In this document: one piece after another, positions 2,310 to 64,000 of the stretch | How positions within the stretch are numbered: the first letter of the stretch is position 1 | How the letters are laid out: every line of letters starts with the position of its first letter | Virus record (IMG/VR): IMGVR_UViG_3300028048_000075 | Coordinates: 32,001-96,000 of that record | DNA length: 64,000 nt | Direction: 5' to 3' (one strand) | Source: a virus | Lineage: Duplodnaviria > Caudoviricetes | Position numbers and translations under genes: made by a program | Notes under the pieces: model-generated | What the model saw: only the letters and a program-made list of their open reading frames with translations | Database searches by the model: none | What the model was told of the DNA's origin: nothing

Positions 2310-2633
2310 ATGGCTAATAAAAATATTCTTAAAATGCCAGATGAGTATTTTCAGAATGTTAACAACGATGAAGATCTTTTGACTAGTGAAGAAGAAAATG
2401 CTAGGAGAGAAGTGGCGGACTATATGGAAAACCATTACATGGAAGAGTGTAGAGATGACTATAACAAGAATTCTTCAACTTCTAAGAAAGAAGAAGAAAA
2501 GAATGATCCGTTTATGACAGGTCTTGCTGTAGTCTGTTCCGCTGCACTGATTTCATCAATTGTTGGAGGAATTTCAACTTTCTTTACAAATAGGAAAGTT
2601 AATAAATTTCTCAAAGAACAGAAAAACAAGTAA
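2310..2633 (+). CDS. acidic protein with C-terminal TM helix
   Basis: GGAGG RBS, early promoter motif at 2265. Confidence 0.75.
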   Translation: MANKNILKMPDEYFQNVNNDEDLLTSEEENARREVADYMENHYMEECRDDYNKNSSTSKKEEEKNDPFMTGLAVVCSAALISSIVGGISTFFTNRKVNKFLKEQKNK

Positions 2634-2718
2634 AGCAAATTGAGAAAAAAGAGGGGATTTGATAATCCCTTCTTTTTTTTTATGACTATTTAATATAACA
2701 AAAAGAGGTGTATAAGTT

Positions 2719-2928
2719 ATGAAAAATCCATTTAAATCTGACGTTGTTAAAATGGTTATTATGCTTTTAACATGTGTTTCATTAATTGTAATCATAGTTT
2801 TACATAGTTTTGGAATAATTACTGAATTCGTTAAAGATGTTTCTATGCTATGTGTAATTTTGATATTGTTTTGCTTTTTGATATATGGAATAAAAGAATT
2901 TCATGATTTTAAAGACAAAAATGAATGA
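2719..2928 (+). CDS. small 2-TM membrane protein
   Basis: GAGG RBS, two hydrophobic segments. Confidence 0.65.
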   Translation: MKNPFKSDVVKMVIMLLTCVSLIVIIVLHSFGIITEFVKDVSMLCVILILFCFLIYGIKEFHDFKDKNE

Positions 2929-3022
2929 TTTTTATAAGAAGGAGTTTTGCACTCCTTCTTTTTTATTTATATATTATAAAAATGCAAATTACAACAAAAT
3001 ATCAATAAAGGGGTGTTATATT

Positions 3023-5428
3023 ATGTCTGAAGCTAAAGCTGTCATTTATGATGATGATAATATTAAAACTTTGGATTCTATTAGTGCTATACGATTACGT
3101 CCAGCAATGTATGTTGATGGAATTGGAGAGTCTGGTTTATATAAGATCGATTGCGAAGCTGTTCAAAACATTTTTGATGAATATTTGGTTGGAAGATGTA
3201 CATCTTGTAACGTTGAATATAACTCATCTACAGGATATATGAGAGTTGAAGATGATGGCGCTGGAATACCTATTGGTAAAATAGTCGATATTTTCACTAA
3301 AGCTCATACTGGTGGAAAGTTTGATAGAGAAGCATATGAGATAAGTTCAGGCCAGAATGGTGTTGGCAGTAAGGCGATAAATGCTCTTAGTAAAAGTCTT
3401 AGAGTTGAAGTTTGGAGAACAGAATATGTCGATAGGAGTGATAATAAAGTTCTTCCTAAGCATGCTGTTTTACAATTTGAAAAAGGTCGTCTTAAAGATG
3501 AATTCTACGAAGATGTTCCAAATTCCACAAAACATGGTACGCTTCTTGAATATTATTCTGATGATGAAATAATGAAAACTAACGTTAGAAACGTTAGAAG
3601 ATTTGCAGATTATTTGAATATGAATTCTTATTTGCTTCCAGGAATTCATATTTCATATACCGTCGATGGTAAAGAAAATGTTTTCTATCATGAAGGTGGT
3701 ATATCGGAATTATTCACAAATCGTTTTATAAAAGAAAAACATGTCAAAACTATGTTCGACCATATAGAAGTTCATGGAAATGAACGAATGTTTAGTTTTG
3801 ATATAGTATTTTCATATAATCCTATAAATACTGGAGATTCAAATATTGTATCTGCTGTAAATGGAAATAACACTCCATTACATGGAGTACATGTTTCTTC
3901 ATTTAGAGCTGGTGCAGCATTAGCACTTACAGATTATTTGAAAGAAAACAGTGATTTGATACCGAAATCTTTGAAAAACGTCAATATTTCCGGAACTATT
4001 GTTGGTGACAATATAGTTGCTGTTGTTTCTGTAAAGCACAGAGAACCATTGTATAGTGGTCAAACTAAAGAAGCATTTAAATCTGATGATGTTCAAGAAC
4101 CAATTAAGCAAACTACACGTAAAGTATTTGCGAAATGGTTGAGAGATAATCCTCAGGGCGCTAAGAAATTAGTTAGCATGATTATTGATTATGCTAAGTA
4201 TGAAGAAGAGAGAAAGAAACTTAAGAAAAATCTTATTGAATCTAAGGTAGCTAAAAGTGCTTTTGCTGCTAATGGTGTAGATCCTACGAAATATACTACT
4301 TGTAGAAGTAATAATCCTGAAGAAAGAGAACTCTTTATAGTAGAAGGAGACTCTGCTGGTGGTAACGTAGTACTTGCACAAGATCGTGAATTCCAAGCAC
4401 TTTATAAACTTACTGGTAAGATTCTTAACGTTATTAAATCAAACACAAGTAACTTGAGTAAAGTTATTATGGAATTGGTGAAAATTCTTGGTATGGGATT
4501 ACCTACTAATGGAAATCCTCCTAATTATAAGAATTTACAATACCATAAAATAATCATATTGACTGATGCTGATGATGATGGTGCACACATCGCTACACTT
4601 CTATTGGCATTCTTTTATAGATTCTATCCAAAACTTATTGAGGATGGAAATGTATTTATTGCTAATCCTCCGATTAAGAAACTCACAATGTCTAATGGAA
4701 AATACTTCTATATTCATACTGAAGCAGATTACAGTAGACTTATGAGAGAATTCATTTCTGAATCATTTGAGTTAATCAGTGCTAAGAATGGATACGTCAT
4801 GTCAAAAGGTTTCTTTGAGGAATACATTTATCACATTCAGGGATATGATAACCTTATTGAAAACCATGCACATGCATTAGCGATCGACAATGATCTTCTT
4901 GAGCATATTATAATTAATATCAATATTCTCACTCAGTGTAGTGATAATAGAGAAGATAAGTTTAACAAAGCTTTTTATAAGAACACAGGGTTCTATGTAC
5001 GTAAAATGGTTGGTCAACCTTATTACACATTTGATAAAGGAACTTATCATGCTAACGTACGTATAGATAAGAATTTTATAGATCATCATTTTTATGAGAT
5101 TGCTGACAAGCTTAATGAAATCATGTATTACGGTTTATCTTTAAGGGGAAAACGCTCCGGAAAAGTTTACCGTGGTACAATATATTCTCTCATGAAAGTT
5201 ATGAATGGAATACTTGGACCTAAAGTCGATATCAAGCGATTTAAAGGTCTTGGTGAAATGAGTTGTAGAGATCTTACAGAAACTACGATTAATCCTACAA
5301 AGAGATTGCTTACTCAAGTGAGAATGTCTGATGCAGAAAAAGCCGACAGAGCTATGCAAATCTTCATGAACGACACTTACATAAAGTATAAGCGATTATT
5401 CTATGCTGGAAGGATCGATTTTGACTAA
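3023..5428 (+). CDS. gyrB: type IIA topoisomerase B subunit (GyrB/ParE-like)
   Basis: IRLRPAMY, DDGAGIP, HTGGKF, GQNGVG, VEGDSAG, TDADDDGAHI, RFKGLGEM; start moved to the ATG after the GGGG RBS and early promoter. Confidence 0.93.
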   Translation: MSEAKAVIYDDDNIKTLDSISAIRLRPAMYVDGIGESGLYKIDCEAVQNIFDEYLVGRCTSCNVEYNSSTGYMRVEDDGAGIPIGKIVDIFTKAHTGGKFDREAYEISSGQNGVGSKAINALSKSLRVEVWRTEYVDRSDNKVLPKHAVLQFEKGRLKDEFYEDVPNSTKHGTLLEYYSDDEIMKTNVRNVRRFADYLNMNSYLLPGIHISYTVDGKENVFYHEGGISELFTNRFIKEKHVKTMFDHIEVHGNERMFSFDIVFSYNPINTGDSNIVSAVNGNNTPLHGVHVSSFRAGAALALTDYLKENSDLIPKSLKNVNISGTIVGDNIVAVVSVKHREPLYSGQTKEAFKSDDVQEPIKQTTRKVFAKWLRDNPQGAKKLVSMIIDYAKYEEERKKLKKNLIESKVAKSAFAANGVDPTKYTTCRSNNPEERELFIVEGDSAGGNVVLAQDREFQALYKLTGKILNVIKSNTSNLSKVIMELVKILGMGLPTNGNPPNYKNLQYHKIIILTDADDDGAHIATLLLAFFYRFYPKLIEDGNVFIANPPIKKLTMSNGKYFYIHTEADYSRLMREFISESFELISAKNGYVMSKGFFEEYIYHIQGYDNLIENHAHALAIDNDLLEHIIININILTQCSDNREDKFNKAFYKNTGFYVRKMVGQPYYTFDKGTYHANVRIDKNFIDHHFYEIADKLNEIMYYGLSLRGKRSGKVYRGTIYSLMKVMNGILGPKVDIKRFKGLGEMSCRDLTETTINPTKRLLTQVRMSDAEKADRAMQIFMNDTYIKYKRLFYAGRIDFD

Positions 5429-58500: not shown

Positions 58501-60662
58501 TTTTCGGTTATAGTGATTCTCTTAAAAGAATTCAATTCACAAATATCATTGATGGTGACTGGTTATCTATAGCTGTAACCTATAATGGTACTTTCTTTGG
58601 TGGTTCAGATTTTGCTGAAAAACACGGAATTAAGATTCTTGATGAGAGTACTGGAACTATTGTGGATACGAATATTACTACAGGTAACTGGGTAAGTATA
58701 TTCGAATATTTTAAGACTACATTCTTTATCAATTCTGATGATCAATTATATTATTGGAATGGATCGGATGTTGTATATACTGGTATAGATCATATTAGTG
58801 ATTGGGAATTTAAAACCATTAAAGAAATAAGTTTGATTCTTCTTTGTAGTAAAAACAATAGTGGATTCAAATATTTCACTAATTCCAGATTTAATGACGG
58901 ATCTACTAGTGGTTCTGGATGGAAATGTCAAAAGATTCCTGGCGGACATATAGTTTATCCTACTAAGAATCCTGGATATCCATATGCTATAACTACTTCT
59001 AAAGCATTCAAAATGCTTAATGGATTCGATACTTACACTCATTTTGCTAATATTACTCACACAATGAAACAAACTGTTAATCCTCCACAAGGTGCTACAA
59101 ATCCTGATGGAACACCAGTTAAACCGACAGTAACTTATACATATACGTTATATTTGTTTGGTGGAACTAGAAACAATGGTATTCTTACTTATAAGAGTAC
59201 ATCGGGATCTAGCAATAAATTCCAGTTTGAAAAATCTAATCCTGAAACCAGATTCGTAGATGCTGTAGGTTCTTCAAGTCTTGCAATACCTATGAATCTT
59301 ACTAATACAACAATTTGTGTAGTTACTGATAATAAATTCGTAGATGTTGATTTTATTATAAGTCATGCTTCTGAATCTACTGGTGGAATAGCTCCTGTAT
59401 ACCCATTGGATGAAGATGATTCTTCCACATTACGTCAATTTACATCGATTACAAAGTATCAAACTTGTAAATCAAAAGTTTTCTTTACAGATTCTACAGG
59501 ATCTGGAAACCAGAATTATTATATCGATTTTGGTACATCTACTGTAAATGATCTTGATGATTCTATAGATTTGAATTCTGGTGTATTCTATGAGTTTGAT
59601 CCTAATGATACTTTGTATTGGAAACGTAATGATGGAAAAGGTGTATATAAATTTACAAATAATTCTGTTGTAGCTATGATTGATGGTGCAGACAATGATC
59701 TTACCGGATGGGAATTAACCTATGCCGGTGGAAGATTGTATGCTACAAATACATTAACCGGAAAAGGTGTTAGAACTATTTCTGGAAACAAATTGGTTAC
59801 AACAAATATCGATTCTGGATTCTGGAAAGTTGGAGCTAGCGATGCGAAAGTTTTTGCAATGTCGTATAATAACACTAATAAAGGTATTAGATATTGTAAT
59901 AGACTTGCTCCTACTATAGAATTTATCGAAATACCTGCAGAATGCACTAAATATGGTGATATTGGCGGATTCGCATATAACAGTAGTAGAGGAATAATGT
60001 ACTTCGGAGAAAACCGTTCTGCACTCATTCTTAACGTTGGTTCTATACCATATGACGTTGACGGATTTATATTCCCTCTATATGAGTATGAATTACAGAA
60101 ACGACTTTCTGAAATCATCAGCAATAAGCTTGTAATTTTCTCTAATATTATTCTATCATTACTTGAAACAAATGCTTTGTTAGACGATATCTTGAATATT
60201 CTTAATCCTATTATGGACGATATGGACGACTTCTATACATCTATGCTAGTTTCATCAAATCTCTTCAGTAATCTTTTGTCTTATGCAGAAGCTAGATCTG
60301 AATTCGATATCGATGATCCGTATGCATTGGATGGTATCTTAACAGATTTCATACTAAACTACTCTTATAATAAGAATAGAAATGATACTACAGCATCTTT
60401 CTATGCTTCATTAGTTGATAGACATGGTGTTTCTGGTTCAGGTCCTACAAATAGTAGTCTTGAAGAAATTATGGCTAGATTTAATGCTGGTCTTATTAAC
60501 ATCAAAGTCTTCTCTAATGTAACAATGGCTGAAAAAGATGGTAAAATGCAAGAAGTTTCGTTGTTAGACTCTGTTGGTGGAGACACTACAGAATTTAATA
60601 AAAAATACAATTGGAGAACTCTTGAGTTCATGAATTGTGACGAAAACGGAGATATCTATTAA
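55587..60662 (+). CDS. 1691-aa probable virion protein: N-terminal 20-aa repeats, helical middle, beta-propeller-like C-terminal part
   Basis: GACA-N6-TA at 55540; recurring TNIxxGxW blade-like motifs. Confidence 0.7.
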   Translation: MGVYTHSASRAIYEQEIKKVGSNLTHSGSKAIYQQELAKASSQYTHSASKSVYEQELAKVTNKYTHSASKSVYEQELAKATKNNSTVSNAASTFTGGGGSSGTYSSGGSSGSNLTASSSDNSNSNNSSRSGSKASESGNGEAKPINNVLSNYDNEVVETESGSSGFASGLLETYKNGGAQGLVSNLTTSVSSYLNDKIQSLNKLASGFASGMLDKLGLSKYLDKFMEFGNKYFGDVMKMLGDMKNDALRQLQNAALNYISNIVEDLTANLLSTVYIPDSVFKLTIEGLYKAGADLAYNSHYLRDHCLARDWNETLKYVDEQYGLDYSPAYDELIADVETCSHGSCWKNLHYIFGKMYDHYKYIVKEIGKNTREVEKIIGGDISSLNEMTDEEFNTRFDDVTIAKIVALQGIIGDLTRNKTLIEETMVKGLKDLIVYSYTYVRASDIRKFFTDYPEILKPMYYGSTDNKYNQRFAFTGSDIEIMMPMHGDHKLTEADEAILNDVNSHINELSAAADEASKNATEYELRAKEAGFSLEDGYTIEGAKNKAAASISTLRKNVNQNQKDRYGTLSRTALTKGSNGVYKASMARYTMKNSKKDKVKYRSKDIDDVLEATMTYDNTWVDLRNKNIKTIYVLLANETIFGSEMMVNKAFYDRCKIPTATVLKTSLDKARGILGTSMLVQSMFDLSDAIDGSAYNYTKSVEDYLFDPSVNRSADSLAEVFGGAWKLTFEELNEPDIKDLKITGDLVEGEIVNPQDVASNHVVNNNTLEKINKMLDANLVAKRAIVNILRFASNIPMLNRRDIIIKWLYFFYNAMVSKGIDQAIRQRTLSSLVYYVFGKKGITDISEINGIFDYATTESLNDNIKVLAAISKLQLYEEAMRLEETEFKTTIIKLYKLAVDMMAREVEDIGFIKSLFKYDKEYLKTFFKASFYNEVDFLKSINSRDNLLYGIFYPHKDNLTEHFDGFDRTGIFGYSDSLKRIQFTNIIDGDWLSIAVTYNGTFFGGSDFAEKHGIKILDESTGTIVDTNITTGNWVSIFEYFKTTFFINSDDQLYYWNGSDVVYTGIDHISDWEFKTIKEISLILLCSKNNSGFKYFTNSRFNDGSTSGSGWKCQKIPGGHIVYPTKNPGYPYAITTSKAFKMLNGFDTYTHFANITHTMKQTVNPPQGATNPDGTPVKPTVTYTYTLYLFGGTRNNGILTYKSTSGSSNKFQFEKSNPETRFVDAVGSSSLAIPMNLTNTTICVVTDNKFVDVDFIISHASESTGGIAPVYPLDEDDSSTLRQFTSITKYQTCKSKVFFTDSTGSGNQNYYIDFGTSTVNDLDDSIDLNSGVFYEFDPNDTLYWKRNDGKGVYKFTNNSVVAMIDGADNDLTGWELTYAGGRLYATNTLTGKGVRTISGNKLVTTNIDSGFWKVGASDAKVFAMSYNNTNKGIRYCNRLAPTIEFIEIPAECTKYGDIGGFAYNSSRGIMYFGENRSALILNVGSIPYDVDGFIFPLYEYELQKRLSEIISNKLVIFSNIILSLLETNALLDDILNILNPIMDDMDDFYTSMLVSSNLFSNLLSYAEARSEFDIDDPYALDGILTDFILNYSYNKNRNDTTASFYASLVDRHGVSGSGPTNSSLEEIMARFNAGLINIKVFSNVTMAEKDGKMQEVSLLDSVGGDTTEFNKKYNWRTLEFMNCDENGDIY
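55596..55835 (+). repeat. four in-frame 60-bp tandem repeats
   Basis: (Y/L)THS(A/G)S(K/R)(A/S)(I/V)Y(E/Q)QE(L/I)xK x4. Confidence 0.85.
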
Positions 60663-60697
60663 AATATAATAAGGGTGGCTCAATGCCACCCTTATTT

Positions 60698-61642
60698 TTA
60701 TTCGATAAATGGATCTGCTGTAATAACAACAGCATCTTTATATTTACCAATAACATGCAAGAAGTTTTCAATTTCAGCAACTGTGAATGTTCTTTCTGTG
60801 AAATAACGTTTCCAGTCTGTGTAATTGATTCTCCAAGTTTCGGTATTCTTTTCTTCTGAATGGTAAAGTTCAATAAGTTTTTCGATATCAGCAAGATCGT
60901 TAACAACAAATATCTTATTCTTAATCTTCTTGTTATCTGGATTGAACGTTGTAATTCTTCCAGGATTAAATACATCGTTGACAATCTCAGTAACAACGTT
61001 GATGTATTTTTCATAAGTCTTAAGATATTCGTTGTATACAGCATTCTTAAACAACAATGGCCAGTCATTAACGCCTTTATTCTTAATAACGCTTGTGAAT
61101 TTGACAATAGCAGAACGATAATCTCCAGCAGTAGCATATGAGAATACACTTTGGTGTAATTCGTAAAGAATACCAAGCATATCTTTTTCTGTAAGTTTTT
61201 CGTACTTTGTGTAGGTATCGAAAATGTCTTCAAGTTCGTCAGGATCATAAGAACCAATCTGAACATCAATAATGCTATCAACATTTACGACATGTGTCGA
61301 AATTGAAGACATTGCGCTTTTAAGCTGAGTTCCATCATAAATCATTCCAGGGAAACCGGAAATATCCCAACCTACAAAAGCCCAAGTGTTTTCTGAGATT
61401 TCATAAGCTTTCAATACAGAAATGTGTCTAGCTTCACCAATTCCGACACTATATGGAAGACGCTTATTATAAGCGAGTTCATTATCATCGTTATATTTTT
61501 CGATCTTTCTAACAAGATCAAGTGGTGAAGAAATACCTTGAAGTAGCGTTTTTACAATTTCTGGATTGTAGGTGTTGATTTTAGTGGAATCAAGTTCCAC
61601 GATGTCATTGATAGTATAATATCCATTATGCATAATGTGCAC
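60698..61642 (-). CDS. hypothetical protein (late promoter)
   Basis: AGGAG RBS; GACA-N6-TA on - strand at 61660-61671. Confidence 0.75.
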   Translation of the reverse strand: MHIMHNGYYTINDIVELDSTKINTYNPEIVKTLLQGISSPLDLVRKIEKYNDDNELAYNKRLPYSVGIGEARHISVLKAYEISENTWAFVGWDISGFPGMIYDGTQLKSAMSSISTHVVNVDSIIDVQIGSYDPDELEDIFDTYTKYEKLTEKDMLGILYELHQSVFSYATAGDYRSAIVKFTSVIKNKGVNDWPLLFKNAVYNEYLKTYEKYINVVTEIVNDVFNPGRITTFNPDNKKIKNKIFVVNDLADIEKLIELYHSEEKNTETWRINYTDWKRYFTERTFTVAEIENFLHVIGKYKDAVVITADPFIE

Positions 61643-61749
61643 TCCTAATCTATTGATTATATTAAAATGTCTTGGCTAACCAATCACATAAATTTTTAAC
61701 TAAAATTTAAACCACACAACTATATAATTTGTATTATATAGGAGAAATT

Positions 61750-62565
61750 ATGTTATGGATAAAGAATTCAAAATTACGAAAAAGCATATTATTGCTTGTT
61801 GTATTACTATCGTTCTTTGTATCGGGTCTTTCTGCGCAGGCAGGTTCCTCAGATTTAGAGGAATTTCAGGAACTAGCCAGCAGCTTATCGACGGAGTCGT
61901 ACTTAGCAGAGAAACAGCAGATAAACTTGCTGATGAGCTTAATATTGCAAGAGCTTCACTCAGCTCCTCAGAAAACTATGGACAAACAATCCTTGAAGGA
62001 ATTGGAGAATTACGAAAAGCTAGTGAAGTCGGAAGATTATGCTCAGATGCCATTAAGTTATCAATTGAAAGAGATGCGGAAAACAATGAAAATCTACTCA
62101 AAGCTCGAGGAGACTATTTCGAATCAGTCGACTACGCTATCGAATTGGCAACTCAACGTGCTGAACTATATGAGCAAATTGTTCGAACATATGAACAGGC
62201 TGTCTTTTATAATGGAAAAAATAGTAACGAGTCAGAACCAGGACATGGGGTTGGCAATTAACGAATTAAACAAAGCGTTATCAGATGTAGATTTTTTACA
62301 AACACATCTTGCTAGTATGGAAATATTAGCAAGAAAACAAGCTGAAGAAATTGCTGCGTTAAATAACCGATATAAAGGATTAAAACGAGTTAGAATTGGA
62401 AGTCTTTGTATTGGTGGTGCTAGTTTGTTTATCGGTGTCACCGGTTATTTTGTACATAAGACTGATAGTTCTGAAGAACTCGGTAAAATGATGATGTATG
62501 CTGGTGCTACAGCTTTAGGATGTAGTGCAGCAACATTTGGATTAAGTTTTAGCATACCTTTTTAA
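61750..62565 (+). CDS. signal-peptide coiled-coil protein with two C-terminal TM helices (outer gene of nested pair)
   Basis: MLWIKNSKLRKSILLLVVLLSFFVSGLSAQA; helical body; Gly-rich TM hairpin. Confidence 0.65.
   Translation: MLWIKNSKLRKSILLLVVLLSFFVSGLSAQAGSSDLEEFQELASSLSTESYLAEKQQINLLMSLILQELHSAPQKTMDKQSLKELENYEKLVKSEDYAQMPLSYQLKEMRKTMKIYSKLEETISNQSTTLSNWQLNVLNYMSKLFEHMNRLSFIMEKIVTSQNQDMGLAINELNKALSDVDFLQTHLASMEILARKQAEEIAALNNRYKGLKRVRIGSLCIGGASLFIGVTGYFVHKTDSSEELGKMMMYAGATALGCSAATFGLSFSIPF
61755..62261 (+). CDS. type II membrane coiled-coil protein nested in another frame (i-spanin-like)
   Basis: KKHIIACCITIVLCIGSFCAGRF anchor plus heptad-rich body; same GGAG RBS. Confidence 0.65.
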   Translation: MDKEFKITKKHIIACCITIVLCIGSFCAGRFLRFRGISGTSQQLIDGVVLSRETADKLADELNIARASLSSSENYGQTILEGIGELRKASEVGRLCSDAIKLSIERDAENNENLLKARGDYFESVDYAIELATQRAELYEQIVRTYEQAVFYNGKNSNESEPGHGVGN

Positions 62566-62602
62566 AGATACTTATATATTATATTACTGTAGGGAGGATT
62601 CT

Positions 62603-62764
62603 ATGGATGCAGTGTACCTAGAAGATATTTTGTCAGCAAAACGTGGATCTGAAGAAAGAAAACATGCTATTAACAGAGCTAGAGCTTATGTTAATGAAAA
62701 GTATGGAATAGATCTAAAAGATCCTACGAAGTTTCTTATTCAAAATATCGAAGAATCTAAATGA
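62603..62764 (+). CDS. 53-aa early peptide (not in ORF track)
   Basis: GGAGG RBS, early motif 62572. Confidence 0.6.
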   Translation: MDAVYLEDILSAKRGSEERKHAINRARAYVNEKYGIDLKDPTKFLIQNIEESK

Positions 62765-62826
62765 TGGTAATGGTGGAGAGTTTTCTCTCCACCATTAATA
62801 TTTGTTTTCATATTAAGGAGTATAAT

Positions 62827-63348
62827 ATGAGAAACCGATGTGACTGGAACGCAGTCATCGAGGACATTAAAGCAAATGCTGGAAAATATTCTCGAATGGA
62901 TATTTGCGAAAAATATAACATGACTTATTGGGCTTGTACACAATATTTTCATCATCATGAAAATTATGCTAAGCTCTTAAGACATGTTGACAATATCAAG
63001 GTGGATCGCAAACGATTTAAAGAAATCGTTGAGCAGAATCCTAACAAATATTCTGTTGACGATCTCGCAGAAATGTTTTCTGTATCAAGATCTGCAATTT
63101 TCAATTTGATACGCAATGACCCACAGATTACAAAATTGAAAGGTTTGATATGTATATCGTATAGTCATCCAAAGTTCGATTGGGAAACTATCGATAAACG
63201 TGTTTTGCCAATAATTTCGCATTTGAGGGTTACGGATGTCGCGGATTATTATAACATCCAGTTTGCTACAGTTCACAAGCATTACGAAATGCTCAATGTG
63301 ATTGACAAATTTGGAACGGATATTATCAATCCGCTGAATTACTTGTAG
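62827..63348 (+). CDS. tandem HTH-repeat protein (3 units)
   Basis: DWxxIxxDI...KYSxxDIxxKY-type units; AGGAG RBS. Confidence 0.65.
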   Translation: MRNRCDWNAVIEDIKANAGKYSRMDICEKYNMTYWACTQYFHHHENYAKLLRHVDNIKVDRKRFKEIVEQNPNKYSVDDLAEMFSVSRSAIFNLIRNDPQITKLKGLICISYSHPKFDWETIDKRVLPIISHLRVTDVADYYNIQFATVHKHYEMLNVIDKFGTDIINPLNYL

Positions 63349-63379
63349 TGTAATGATAATAATACTGTAAGGAGGTATT

Positions 63380-64000
63380 ATGGAAAAACAAAAACGTGAT
63401 TGGAAAACCATTGAGGATGATATTAGAAATCATCCCGGTGTTTATTCCAAAGCTGATATTACTCGTAAATATCAGTTAAGGAAATTCGAATGTCAAGTAC
63501 ATTTCAGATATCGTCTTGAGTTCGAAGATCTGTTTCGCAACGGGTACGAAAAGTATGACTGGAAAACTGTCGAAGAAGACATTAGACAGAATCCAGGCGT
63601 ATATTCTCGAATGGATATTTGTGAAAAATACAACATTTGTAGAACAGCAGCCATATCCCATTTTAAAAAGAATAAGGAATTCAAACCTTTGCTTTGTGTC
63701 AAAAATCGTAAAGATCTTAGATATGATTGGCAAAGCATAGAGCAAGATGTTAGAGACAATCCTAACAAATACTCTTTTGCAATTATAACTAAGAAATACG
63801 GCATGACATTTTCAGCTTGTATAAATCACTTTAAACATTGTCCAGAATTAAAAGAATTGATTTTGGACGATTCGACGTTCCGAAAGTACAATTGGAAAAT
63901 CATCGAAGATGACATTAAAAGTTGTCCTCGTGGTGAATATTCGATTACCGACATTTGTAAAAAATACGGAACAACGATTACAGCGTGTTTATCACGTTTC
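63380..64000 (+). CDS. tandem HTH-repeat protein (at least 4 units), truncated by window end (not in ORF track)
   Basis: AGGAGG RBS; MEKQKRDWKTIEDDIRNHPGVYSKADITRKY..., open to position 64000. Confidence 0.75.
   Translation, partial: MEKQKRDWKTIEDDIRNHPGVYSKADITRKYQLRKFECQVHFRYRLEFEDLFRNGYEKYDWKTVEEDIRQNPGVYSRMDICEKYNICRTAAISHFKKNKEFKPLLCVKNRKDLRYDWQSIEQDVRDNPNKYSFAIITKKYGMTFSACINHFKHCPELKELILDDSTFRKYNWKIIEDDIKSCPRGEYSITDICKKYGTTITACLSRF

Follow-up and report, generated by a model that had tools for sequence, protein, structure and literature searches.

Among the systems described so far, the closest to the locus considered here are the embedded spanins of phages lambda (Rz/Rz1) and T7 (18.5/18.7), in which a gene is completely enclosed by another one that is read from the same strand in a different frame. 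The o-spanin is an outer-membrane lipoprotein with the lipobox [LVI][ASTVI][GAS]C, variants such as AWAC being accepted (PMC6139136), and the unimolecular spanin of phage T1, gp11, requires both the lipobox and the lipoylated Cys (PMC6139136). No spanin family combining embedded and separated members was found by Kongari et al. 2018 (PMC6139136). The locus in question is located in a window of 64,000 nucleotides, which is the whole stretch of DNA analysed here and corresponds to bases 32001–96000 of the IMG/VR virus record IMGVR_UViG_3300028048_000075. It contains two genes, designated A and B, of which B is enclosed in A. Judging from the sequences of the locus and its relatives, A and B very probably form a genuine overprinted, fully embedded dual-coding locus that is maintained by selection; this high confidence applies to the dual coding and not to the function of the pair.

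The A/B pair shares with the embedded spanins the complete enclosure of a same-strand gene in a different frame, the targeting of the products to the envelope (predicted for A and B), and the presence of one small partner with an N-terminal anchor and a helical domain (again predicted for B). As with two-component spanins, several gene architectures occur in the wider group. Unlike in Rz/Rz1, it is the anchored, i-spanin-like protein (B) that is embedded, and in place of an o-spanin lipoprotein of ~60 aa the partner A has 271 aa, a signal of the signal peptidase I (SPase-I) type, and a C-terminal hairpin. The starts of A and B share one Shine–Dalgarno (SD) sequence, whereas the inner gene of embedded spanins has its own; moreover, the A/B overlap covers ~500 nt, shows no linkage to a lysis cassette for the lysin families searched, and has no sequence similarity to these systems. 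The A/B family has both embedded and separated members, unlike the spanin families analysed by Kongari et al. (PMC6139136). Like T1 gp11, A is predicted to carry an N-terminal secretion signal and C-terminal hydrophobic anchor(s) in one chain; however, it has no lipobox, is helical, is twice as long, and is partnered by B. Long same-strand overlaps with two functional frames, where stop avoidance shapes the choice of codons, are also known from the gene sets D/E and A/B/K of phiX174 (PMC8227390, PMC3494269), and, as with overprinted pairs of small viruses, the constraint on both frames can be measured by the method of Wei and Zhang (PMC4316641). In contrast to overprinting in small viruses, the pair described here is found in double-stranded DNA phages of 130–400 kb, for which genome compression is no obvious pressure. 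Unlike the phiX174 pairs, A and B start at the same ribosome landing site and also occur un-nested in relatives.

On the plus strand, positions 61740–61757 read AGGAG-AAATT-ATG-TT-ATG-G (the start region is aGGAGaaattATGttATGg). The ATG codons of A (61750) and B (61755) are 5 nt apart and in different frames, and a hydrophobic N-terminal segment is written in both proteins by identical bases. A nested dual-frame pair with two starts behind one SD had been proposed in a first-pass annotation made from the sequence alone, and the proposal is borne out by the coordinates, by conservation, and by selection. The start codon of A is ATG in every locus. In relatives, B starts with an NTG codon overlapping a conserved Trp codon of A, where the window reads ATGTTATGG; the commonest start in these relatives is ATGTGG, which provides an ATG for A and a GTG for B. 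The spacing between the two starts in relatives is 2–7 nt, and in some clades the ATG of B lies 4 or 7 nt upstream. Pairs of ATG and NTG starts 2–7 nt apart are kept in the 19 embedded loci scanned for starts, and an SD-like motif is located 4–18 nt 5' of the shared start in 18/18 embedded loci scanned. In phage lambda, the two near starts of S105/S107 behind one SD allow a single mRNA to yield two membrane proteins at a set ratio. However, S105 and S107 are read in one frame and differ by two residues, whereas A and B are read in different frames and have unrelated sequences. Two other explanations of the overlapping frames were considered and rejected. Programmed frameshifting from B into A does not fit, since a conserved ATG, an SD, and a signal peptide belong to A itself, which also occurs on its own in the separated loci. 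Nor does an alternative genetic code fit, since the long genes of the window are read through under table 11.

The openness of the two frames exceeds chance. As a background, 89 long genes of the genome contain 0.058 stops per codon when read in the +1 frame and 0.139 when read in the +2 frame. If B is recoded according to the codon usage of the genome, a mean of 8.4 stops appears in frame A, and recoding A in the same way introduces a mean of 14.6 stops into frame B. No stop-free outcome was obtained in 20,000 codon-usage-weighted synonymous recodings in either direction, which agrees with the earlier statement that such nesting is very unlikely by chance. Stops were also looked for in homologues, and both frames proved to be open in all embedded-type loci, that is, in 22/22 complete ones, down to ~52% nucleotide identity. 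Among the 29 fetched loci (numbered with the letter L), where they are complete, A is open over 263–292 codons and B over 164–191 codons; the remote embedded loci L030, L032, and L034–L038 likewise have both frames open. The third frame carries 19–23 stops in the five loci checked, where the A and B frames carry none. Directly past the stop codon of B, the B frame holds 3–15 stops. The avoidance of stops is also visible at individual positions: a T in the third position of an A-frame codon creates a stop in B if AA, AG, or GA follows, and such a T was found in 0/947 cases in the overlap of 19 embedded loci, compared with 26% at the other A-frame third positions of the overlap and 179/539 (33%) at the equivalent positions 3' of the B stop. 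In the neighbouring minus-strand gene encoding 314 aa (60698–61642), a 218-codon ORF in the +1 frame is also nested (60628–61284, minus strand). It was tried as a second dual-coding pair and rejected; this is a chance ORF, because its counterpart in the L026 homologue is interrupted by 16 stops, and being non-conserved it provides a negative control with which the A/B pair can be compared.

Selection was assessed by the site-class method of Wei and Zhang (PMC4316641) using six phylogenetically independent pairs. In the overlap, omega_A is 0.23 (bootstrap confidence interval 0.16–0.31, Fisher p 9e-25) and omega_B is 0.37 (0.27–0.50, p 3e-11). In the control region 3' of B, omega_A is 0.18 (0.13–0.23, p 2.6e-36), and the value for the pseudo-B frame is 0.90 (0.64–1.25, p 0.67). 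Both omega_A and omega_B are below 1 in every pair taken singly. The A and B frames are each under purifying selection. The nucleotide diversity of the overlap by codon position decreases from A3 (=B1), 0.33, through A2 (=B3), 0.26, to A1 (=B2), 0.21; this order is unexpected for single coding in either frame.

Clusters of B homologues (n = 112) comprise proteins of 153–180 aa with 39–96% identity from rumen and gut metagenomes, encoded on contigs of up to 403 kb. A search of 1.8 billion representative proteins with the A profile returned 60 matches, some of them full-length A-type proteins (228–268 aa), and some full-length homologues of this size have been called as single genes. The usual annotation of relatives by gene callers is B followed by an overlapping gene of 103–121 aa. 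The frame of this shorter gene is open back to the start of B in every fetched locus. The internal ATGs of the annotated "gene 2" have no SD except for a 4-mer in L034 and L038, and the position of the ATG is not conserved; L028 and L030 have no ATG whatever at the "gene 2" start position. The annotated short "gene 2" is an artefact, and describing the locus as B followed by such a gene is incorrect. Owing to this systematic misannotation by gene callers (B and a truncated 103–121-aa gene), one full-length conserved protein family is missing from the databases. Searches with blastn and tblastn using the locus, A, B, P0150, P0117, and the L031 B against 50,697 public phage records gave no match. 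The gene neighbourhoods of the pair vary between relatives. Genes encoding flagellin, Band_7, Lipase_3, and tubulin-like proteins were observed near the pair in some of them (L004 6454–6468; L006 1235–2903; L026 3869–5197).

In the L031 and L033 lineages, homologous A and B are separate adjacent genes. In L031, B (2520–2999, 159 aa) is followed by A (3001–3783, 260 aa, starting with MKK), and there are 34 stops in the internal B frame of this A gene. The homology is indicated by hhalign both for L031 B (97.7% probability, E 1.8e-12, 137 columns) and for L031 A (96.6% probability, E 5e-10, 211 columns). L033 is a 240-kb IMG/VR contig with the pair at 2554–3747, where B and A are in the same frame with one stop codon between them; the scores are 118 bits for B, 121 bits for the C-terminal part of A, and 28–30 bits for its N-terminal part. 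An SD-like AAGGA is located upstream of the stand-alone L033 B. Hidden Markov models (HMMs) restricted to the overlap still detect the separated proteins, with 30.8 bits (E 1e-5) for A residues 31–160 and 35 bits (E 8e-7) for the B ectodomain, the E-values being computed at a database size of Z = 1e6. Among 298 decoy ORFs, these overlap-restricted HMMs matched none except the window's own A and B frames, which were included in the set.

The trees of A and B agree with each other. L031 is sister to the embedded L030 (A 100/99, B 90/91), and L033 is placed inside an embedded clade (A 93/95, B 92/94). Monophyly of the separated loci L031 and L033 is rejected on the A tree (approximately unbiased (AU) test, p 0.020). 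Since the domains share bases in one layout and use different bases in the other, only a duplication of the dual-coding segment connects the two layouts. The phylogenies suggest that the embedded layout is ancestral and that un-nesting proceeded by duplication of the dual-coding segment, probably twice. The start of L033 reads ATATGG for ATGTGG; one change removes the ATG of A and turns the GTG of B into ATG. Short resemblances in the L033 B gene are expected from the conservation of B alone. In L033 A, the formerly overlapped N-terminal half is far more diverged than the C-terminal half (28–30 compared with 121 bits).

The predicted layout of A is a signal peptide, a four-helix bundle, a long helix, and a C-terminal hydrophobic hairpin, and that of B is a basic N-terminus of a few residues, a single anchor with [FY]CxGRFxR at its end, and helices. 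The architectures claimed in the first-pass annotation, namely, an LSA|QA signal and a C-terminal Gly-rich hairpin for A and an N-terminal anchor with helices for B, are upheld as predictions. The coordinates are listed in Table 1. The same bases encode the A signal peptide and the B anchor, and further downstream the A helix bundle and the B helical domain.

Table 1. Features of the A/B locus, with positions in the window.
Feature	Position	Strand	Remarks
Shared Shine–Dalgarno sequence AGGAG	61740..61744	+	5 nt to A start, 10 nt to B start
Gene A	61750..62565	+	271 aa from ATG; the ORF list gives 278 aa from an upstream TTG
Gene B	61755..62261	+	168 aa; wholly within gene A, +2 frame
A signal peptide, residues 1–29	61750..61836	+	Sec/SPase-I type, predicted from sequence
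B hydrophobic anchor, residues ~12–29	61788..61841	+	same bases as A signal-peptide core and cleavage site
A four-helix bundle, residues ~37–165 (predicted)	61858..62244	+	encoded entirely by the dual-coding stretch
Annotated 117-aa "gene 2"	62212..62565	+	in-frame truncation of A, no separate gene
A C-terminal hairpin, residues ~216–271 (predicted)	62395..62562	+	two Gly/Ser/Thr-rich, weakly hydrophobic helices with an acidic loop between them; a basic KxxKRVR cluster comes before them
AT-rich promoter-like stretch (ACAACTATATAAT...TATTATAT)	61716..61739	+	just 5' of the RNA-library contig starts

Residues 1–29 of A consist of a K-rich n-region and a hydrophobic core, followed by the site LSA|QA. 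A29 and Q30 are invariant or near-invariant, and homologues, including the separated ones, retain [LVA]x[AS]|Q[ED]D at this site. The AlphaFold2 (AF2) model of A has a mean predicted local distance difference test (pLDDT) score of 69.8, with block pLDDT values of 71–84 over residues 51–160. VIA-align gives Z scores of 10–12 between A residues 31–171 and generic four-helix bundles, which is below the informative level for helical proteins, and Z ~8.5 between residues 210–271 and helical transmembrane (TM) hairpins. In B, the anchor is the only N-terminal hydrophobic segment, flanked by basic residues on both sides and followed by predicted helices; AF2 places a helix at residues 9–31 with low confidence. 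The motif [FY]CxGRFxR is also kept in the separated copies, and a conserved Cys is present in the ectodomain.

Scans of A, B, and the separated homologues against Pfam, PHROGs, NCBIfam, and PADLOC revealed nothing above noise, and the weak family leads SLATT_1, JetC, and histone H3 were set aside as noise. There was no match among PDB sequence profiles. Foldseek searches of PDB and BFVD gave no match at E<=0.001, the best one being the AhlB pore-forming toxin (E 0.08), and the clusters retrieved from the ESM Atlas were all viral and unnamed. The one hint of membership in a spanin family, a feature score of 0.79 in the Atlas against a cluster with DUF2570 in 15% of its members, is at chance level. 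In NCBIfam, the hairpin of L030 A (L030:1588–2394, residues 190–253) matches the two-TM effector domain SLATT_1 below threshold (16.8 bits, E 0.005), which is no more than a lead to a pore-forming two-TM module.

The record is a linear virus contig of 129,605 bp with 33% G+C, judged to be 46% complete, obtained from a cattle rumen metagenome. It encodes split beta subunits of a multisubunit RNA polymerase (RNAP) and topoisomerase II. Judged by RNAP beta (~30% identity), the Bacillus phages AR9 and PBS1 are its closest cultured relatives; Staphylococcus and Listeria jumbo phages come next, and then Yersinia phiR1-37. The phage is an AR9-like jumbo phage from cattle rumen. A scan of the genome contigs for prophage or host clues found none. 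Six families (Amidase_2, Amidase_3, GH25, SLT, M23, and NlpC/P60) were searched for in the 130-kb record, which is 46% complete, and none was found. In four related records, the distance between the pair and an SLT domain is ~8 kb, 18 kb, and >100 kb, and one Amidase_2 match is also distant; the SLT domain is the only candidate lysin in relatives, and its linkage to the pair is not conserved.

RNA-library contigs from two studies of cattle gut or rumen cover 61741–62589, 61745 onward, and 61762–62597; the first and the last of these coincide almost exactly with the locus. The divergent intergenic region 61643–61740 is absent from the RNA-library contigs and is crossed by DNA contigs, and the RNA contigs of the flanking gene end at 61642. 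The contig starts at 61741–61762 are a weak hint of a dedicated transcript beginning just 5' of the SD. A late-like motif had been noted at 61713–61728 in the first reading of the sequence. This claim was not confirmed: the ACAACTATATAAT motif (<=2 mismatches) is not enriched in the window, with 7 occurrences against 6.9 expected. Two of the RNA-library contigs end at 62589 and 62597, past the stop codon of A and before the SD of a 53-aa ORF at 62603; the stretch 62577–62602 may contain a transcript boundary or the next promoter. Further downstream, at 62761–64000, there are genes composed of repeated helix-turn-helix (HTH)-like modules of ~53 aa with weak matches to HTH families of Pfam. These HTH-like genes are internally repetitive, as reflected in a backward jump of 515 at 63400/62886 in all aligned contigs.

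The following mechanism can be proposed. On one mRNA, a single SD would serve two start codons that are separated by 5 nt and open different frames. A ribosome taking the first ATG would produce A (271 aa), and one taking the second ATG would produce B (168 aa). The two starts would compete for a single initiation site, which would fix the A:B ratio; the earlier suggestion that the shared ribosome-binding site sets the stoichiometry is plausible. Both proteins would be inserted into the membrane from the same mRNA, which suggests that A and B probably act together at the host envelope. As to their function, our tentative guess is a late, lysis-associated two-protein module acting on the envelope. 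A fuller proposal is put forward with greater reserve: A and B could be subunits of an undescribed class of machine that acts on the envelope, either in lysis or in the remodelling of membranes, and is found in AR9-like jumbo phages infecting rumen Firmicutes; dual-frame initiation at one SD would fix the ratio of the subunits and co-insert them at one membrane site, and the pair would have been un-nested twice by duplication of the dual-coding segment, with faster divergence afterwards.

Several points weigh against the reading of the locus as a dual-coding pair with the products and history described above. The codon usage over 61750–62170 fits B better than A, although A is more constrained and folds better, so that either frame could be the older one. 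The AF2 model of B is poor (mean pLDDT 45.7), and the actual production of A and B, and of B in particular, is predicted. The RNA-library contigs cannot tell the frames apart and can contain DNA. In A, a basic KKRxR cluster precedes the hairpin and the hairpin loop is acidic; by the positive-inside rule, a cytoplasmic location of the segment before the hairpin fits better than an exported one, in conflict with an exported N-domain. Regarding the two origins of the separated form, monophyly of L031 and L033 is not rejected on the B tree (AU p 0.197), and an alternative-frame relic of the duplication was searched for in L031 and L033, with none detectable. Finally, both separated loci are on long branches (1.5–2.7 substitutions per site for B and 1.4–1.9 for A); together with the divergence of the N-terminal half of L033 A, these branches suggest release from mutual constraint after un-nesting.

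Other functions can be envisaged for a dual-coding pair of this kind. A non-lytic role at the envelope, such as superinfection exclusion, receptor masking, or remodelling of the cell wall or membrane during infection, would be in accordance with the predicted location of A and B at or outside the cytoplasmic membrane, with the lack of linkage to the lysis genes searched for, and with the neighbourhood that varies between relatives. However, exclusion genes are usually sporadic accessory genes, whereas A and B are under purifying selection and persist in jumbo phages that have diverged widely; we regard a non-lytic role as doubtful. Somewhat less probable is a pair timing lysis, where B would be a class-III-like holin with one TM segment and a large ectodomain, as in T of phage T4, and A an exported regulator or co-effector, their ratio being set by start competition. 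The topologies are compatible with such a pair, the close starts behind one SD recall lambda S105/S107, and a core-like gene pair occurs across a wide phage clade. Nevertheless, neither a sequence nor a family match to holins or antiholins was found in Pfam, PHROGs, or NCBIfam, the fold searches (Foldseek and VIA-align) yielded just generic helix bundles and TM hairpins, and no linkage to an endolysin was seen for the families searched; in addition, the lambda starts are in the same frame and those of A and B are not.

The first-pass annotation interpreted the pair as a new two-component, spanin-like system of membrane fusion and lysis in a diderm host, and in such a system B would be the i-spanin and A its outer partner. 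B is i-spanin-like in size and predicted layout (150–170 aa, an N-terminal anchor, and helices), and the weakly hydrophobic Gly-rich hairpin of A could be a membrane-active element. The occurrence of embedded and separated gene architectures in the A/B family resembles that among spanins (Kongari 2018, PMC6139136), and other topologies could in principle act as spanins (PMC6139136). This interpretation was not sustained by the analysis. Neither A nor B has a lipobox or a lipoylated Cys: the SPase-I site of A is followed by Gln, with no Cys at +1, and the conserved Cys of B follows Phe or Tyr (S[FY]C) at the end of the anchor. No spanin family matches A or B in Pfam, PHROGs, or NCBIfam. None of the endolysin families searched for is present in the 130-kb record, and the SLT linkage is not conserved in relatives. 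A diderm host is likewise not supported: the cultured phages nearest in RNAP beta infect the Gram-positive hosts Bacillus, Staphylococcus, and Listeria, with the Yersinia phage coming after them. A new spanin-like system is thus unlikely, and a canonical spanin has at best a slim chance.

Readings with a single coding frame in the overlap fare worse still. If only A were real, B would be an untranslated shadow ORF picked up by gene callers. The constraint is stronger on A (omega 0.23, compared with 0.37 for B), A folds confidently in AF2 and B does not, and in most clades B has just a GTG start inside the ATG-TGG of A. Nonetheless, T is found in 0/947 cases at the B-stop positions against 33% just downstream, omega_B is 0.37 (p 3e-11) against 0.90 in the control, and recoding of A brings a mean of 14.6 stops into B. 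The position of the B start is kept across ATG and GTG variants, and L031 and L033 contain stand-alone B homologues, each with a start codon of its own. A shadow ORF is therefore very improbable. The last reading, two consecutive genes (B of 168 aa and a 117-aa gene 2 from ~62212) with the upstream part of frame A open by chance, is suggested by the annotation of relatives by gene callers, by a shift of the codon-usage likelihood from B to A near 62170–62200, by positive-inside charges at the hairpin that suit a short protein with a cytoplasmic N-terminus, and by the neighbouring non-conserved 218-codon nested ORF, which shows that long chance ORFs occur, but it has next to no probability and is already refuted by conservation across the homologous sequences, since all loci have an open frame A that retains its ATG, SD, and signal peptide, 0/20,000 recodings of B leave A open, omega_A is 0.23 inside the overlap, the short form has neither SD nor conserved start, A is encoded at full length and with a signal peptide of its own in the separated relatives, and full-length A proteins have been called as single genes.

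For tiny viruses, many reports describe conserved dual coding over long stretches of one strand, and genome compression is the explanation given for it. The phages carrying the A/B pair have genomes of 130–400 kb without such pressure, and the layout therefore probably serves regulation or assembly. Its probable benefits are a single initiation site, a fixed ratio, and the joint insertion of two membrane proteins that have their targeting signals encoded by shared bases. The existence of nested and un-nested forms with both proteins homologous provides a natural experiment on the origin of overprinted genes, their mutual constraint, and the resolution of overlaps.

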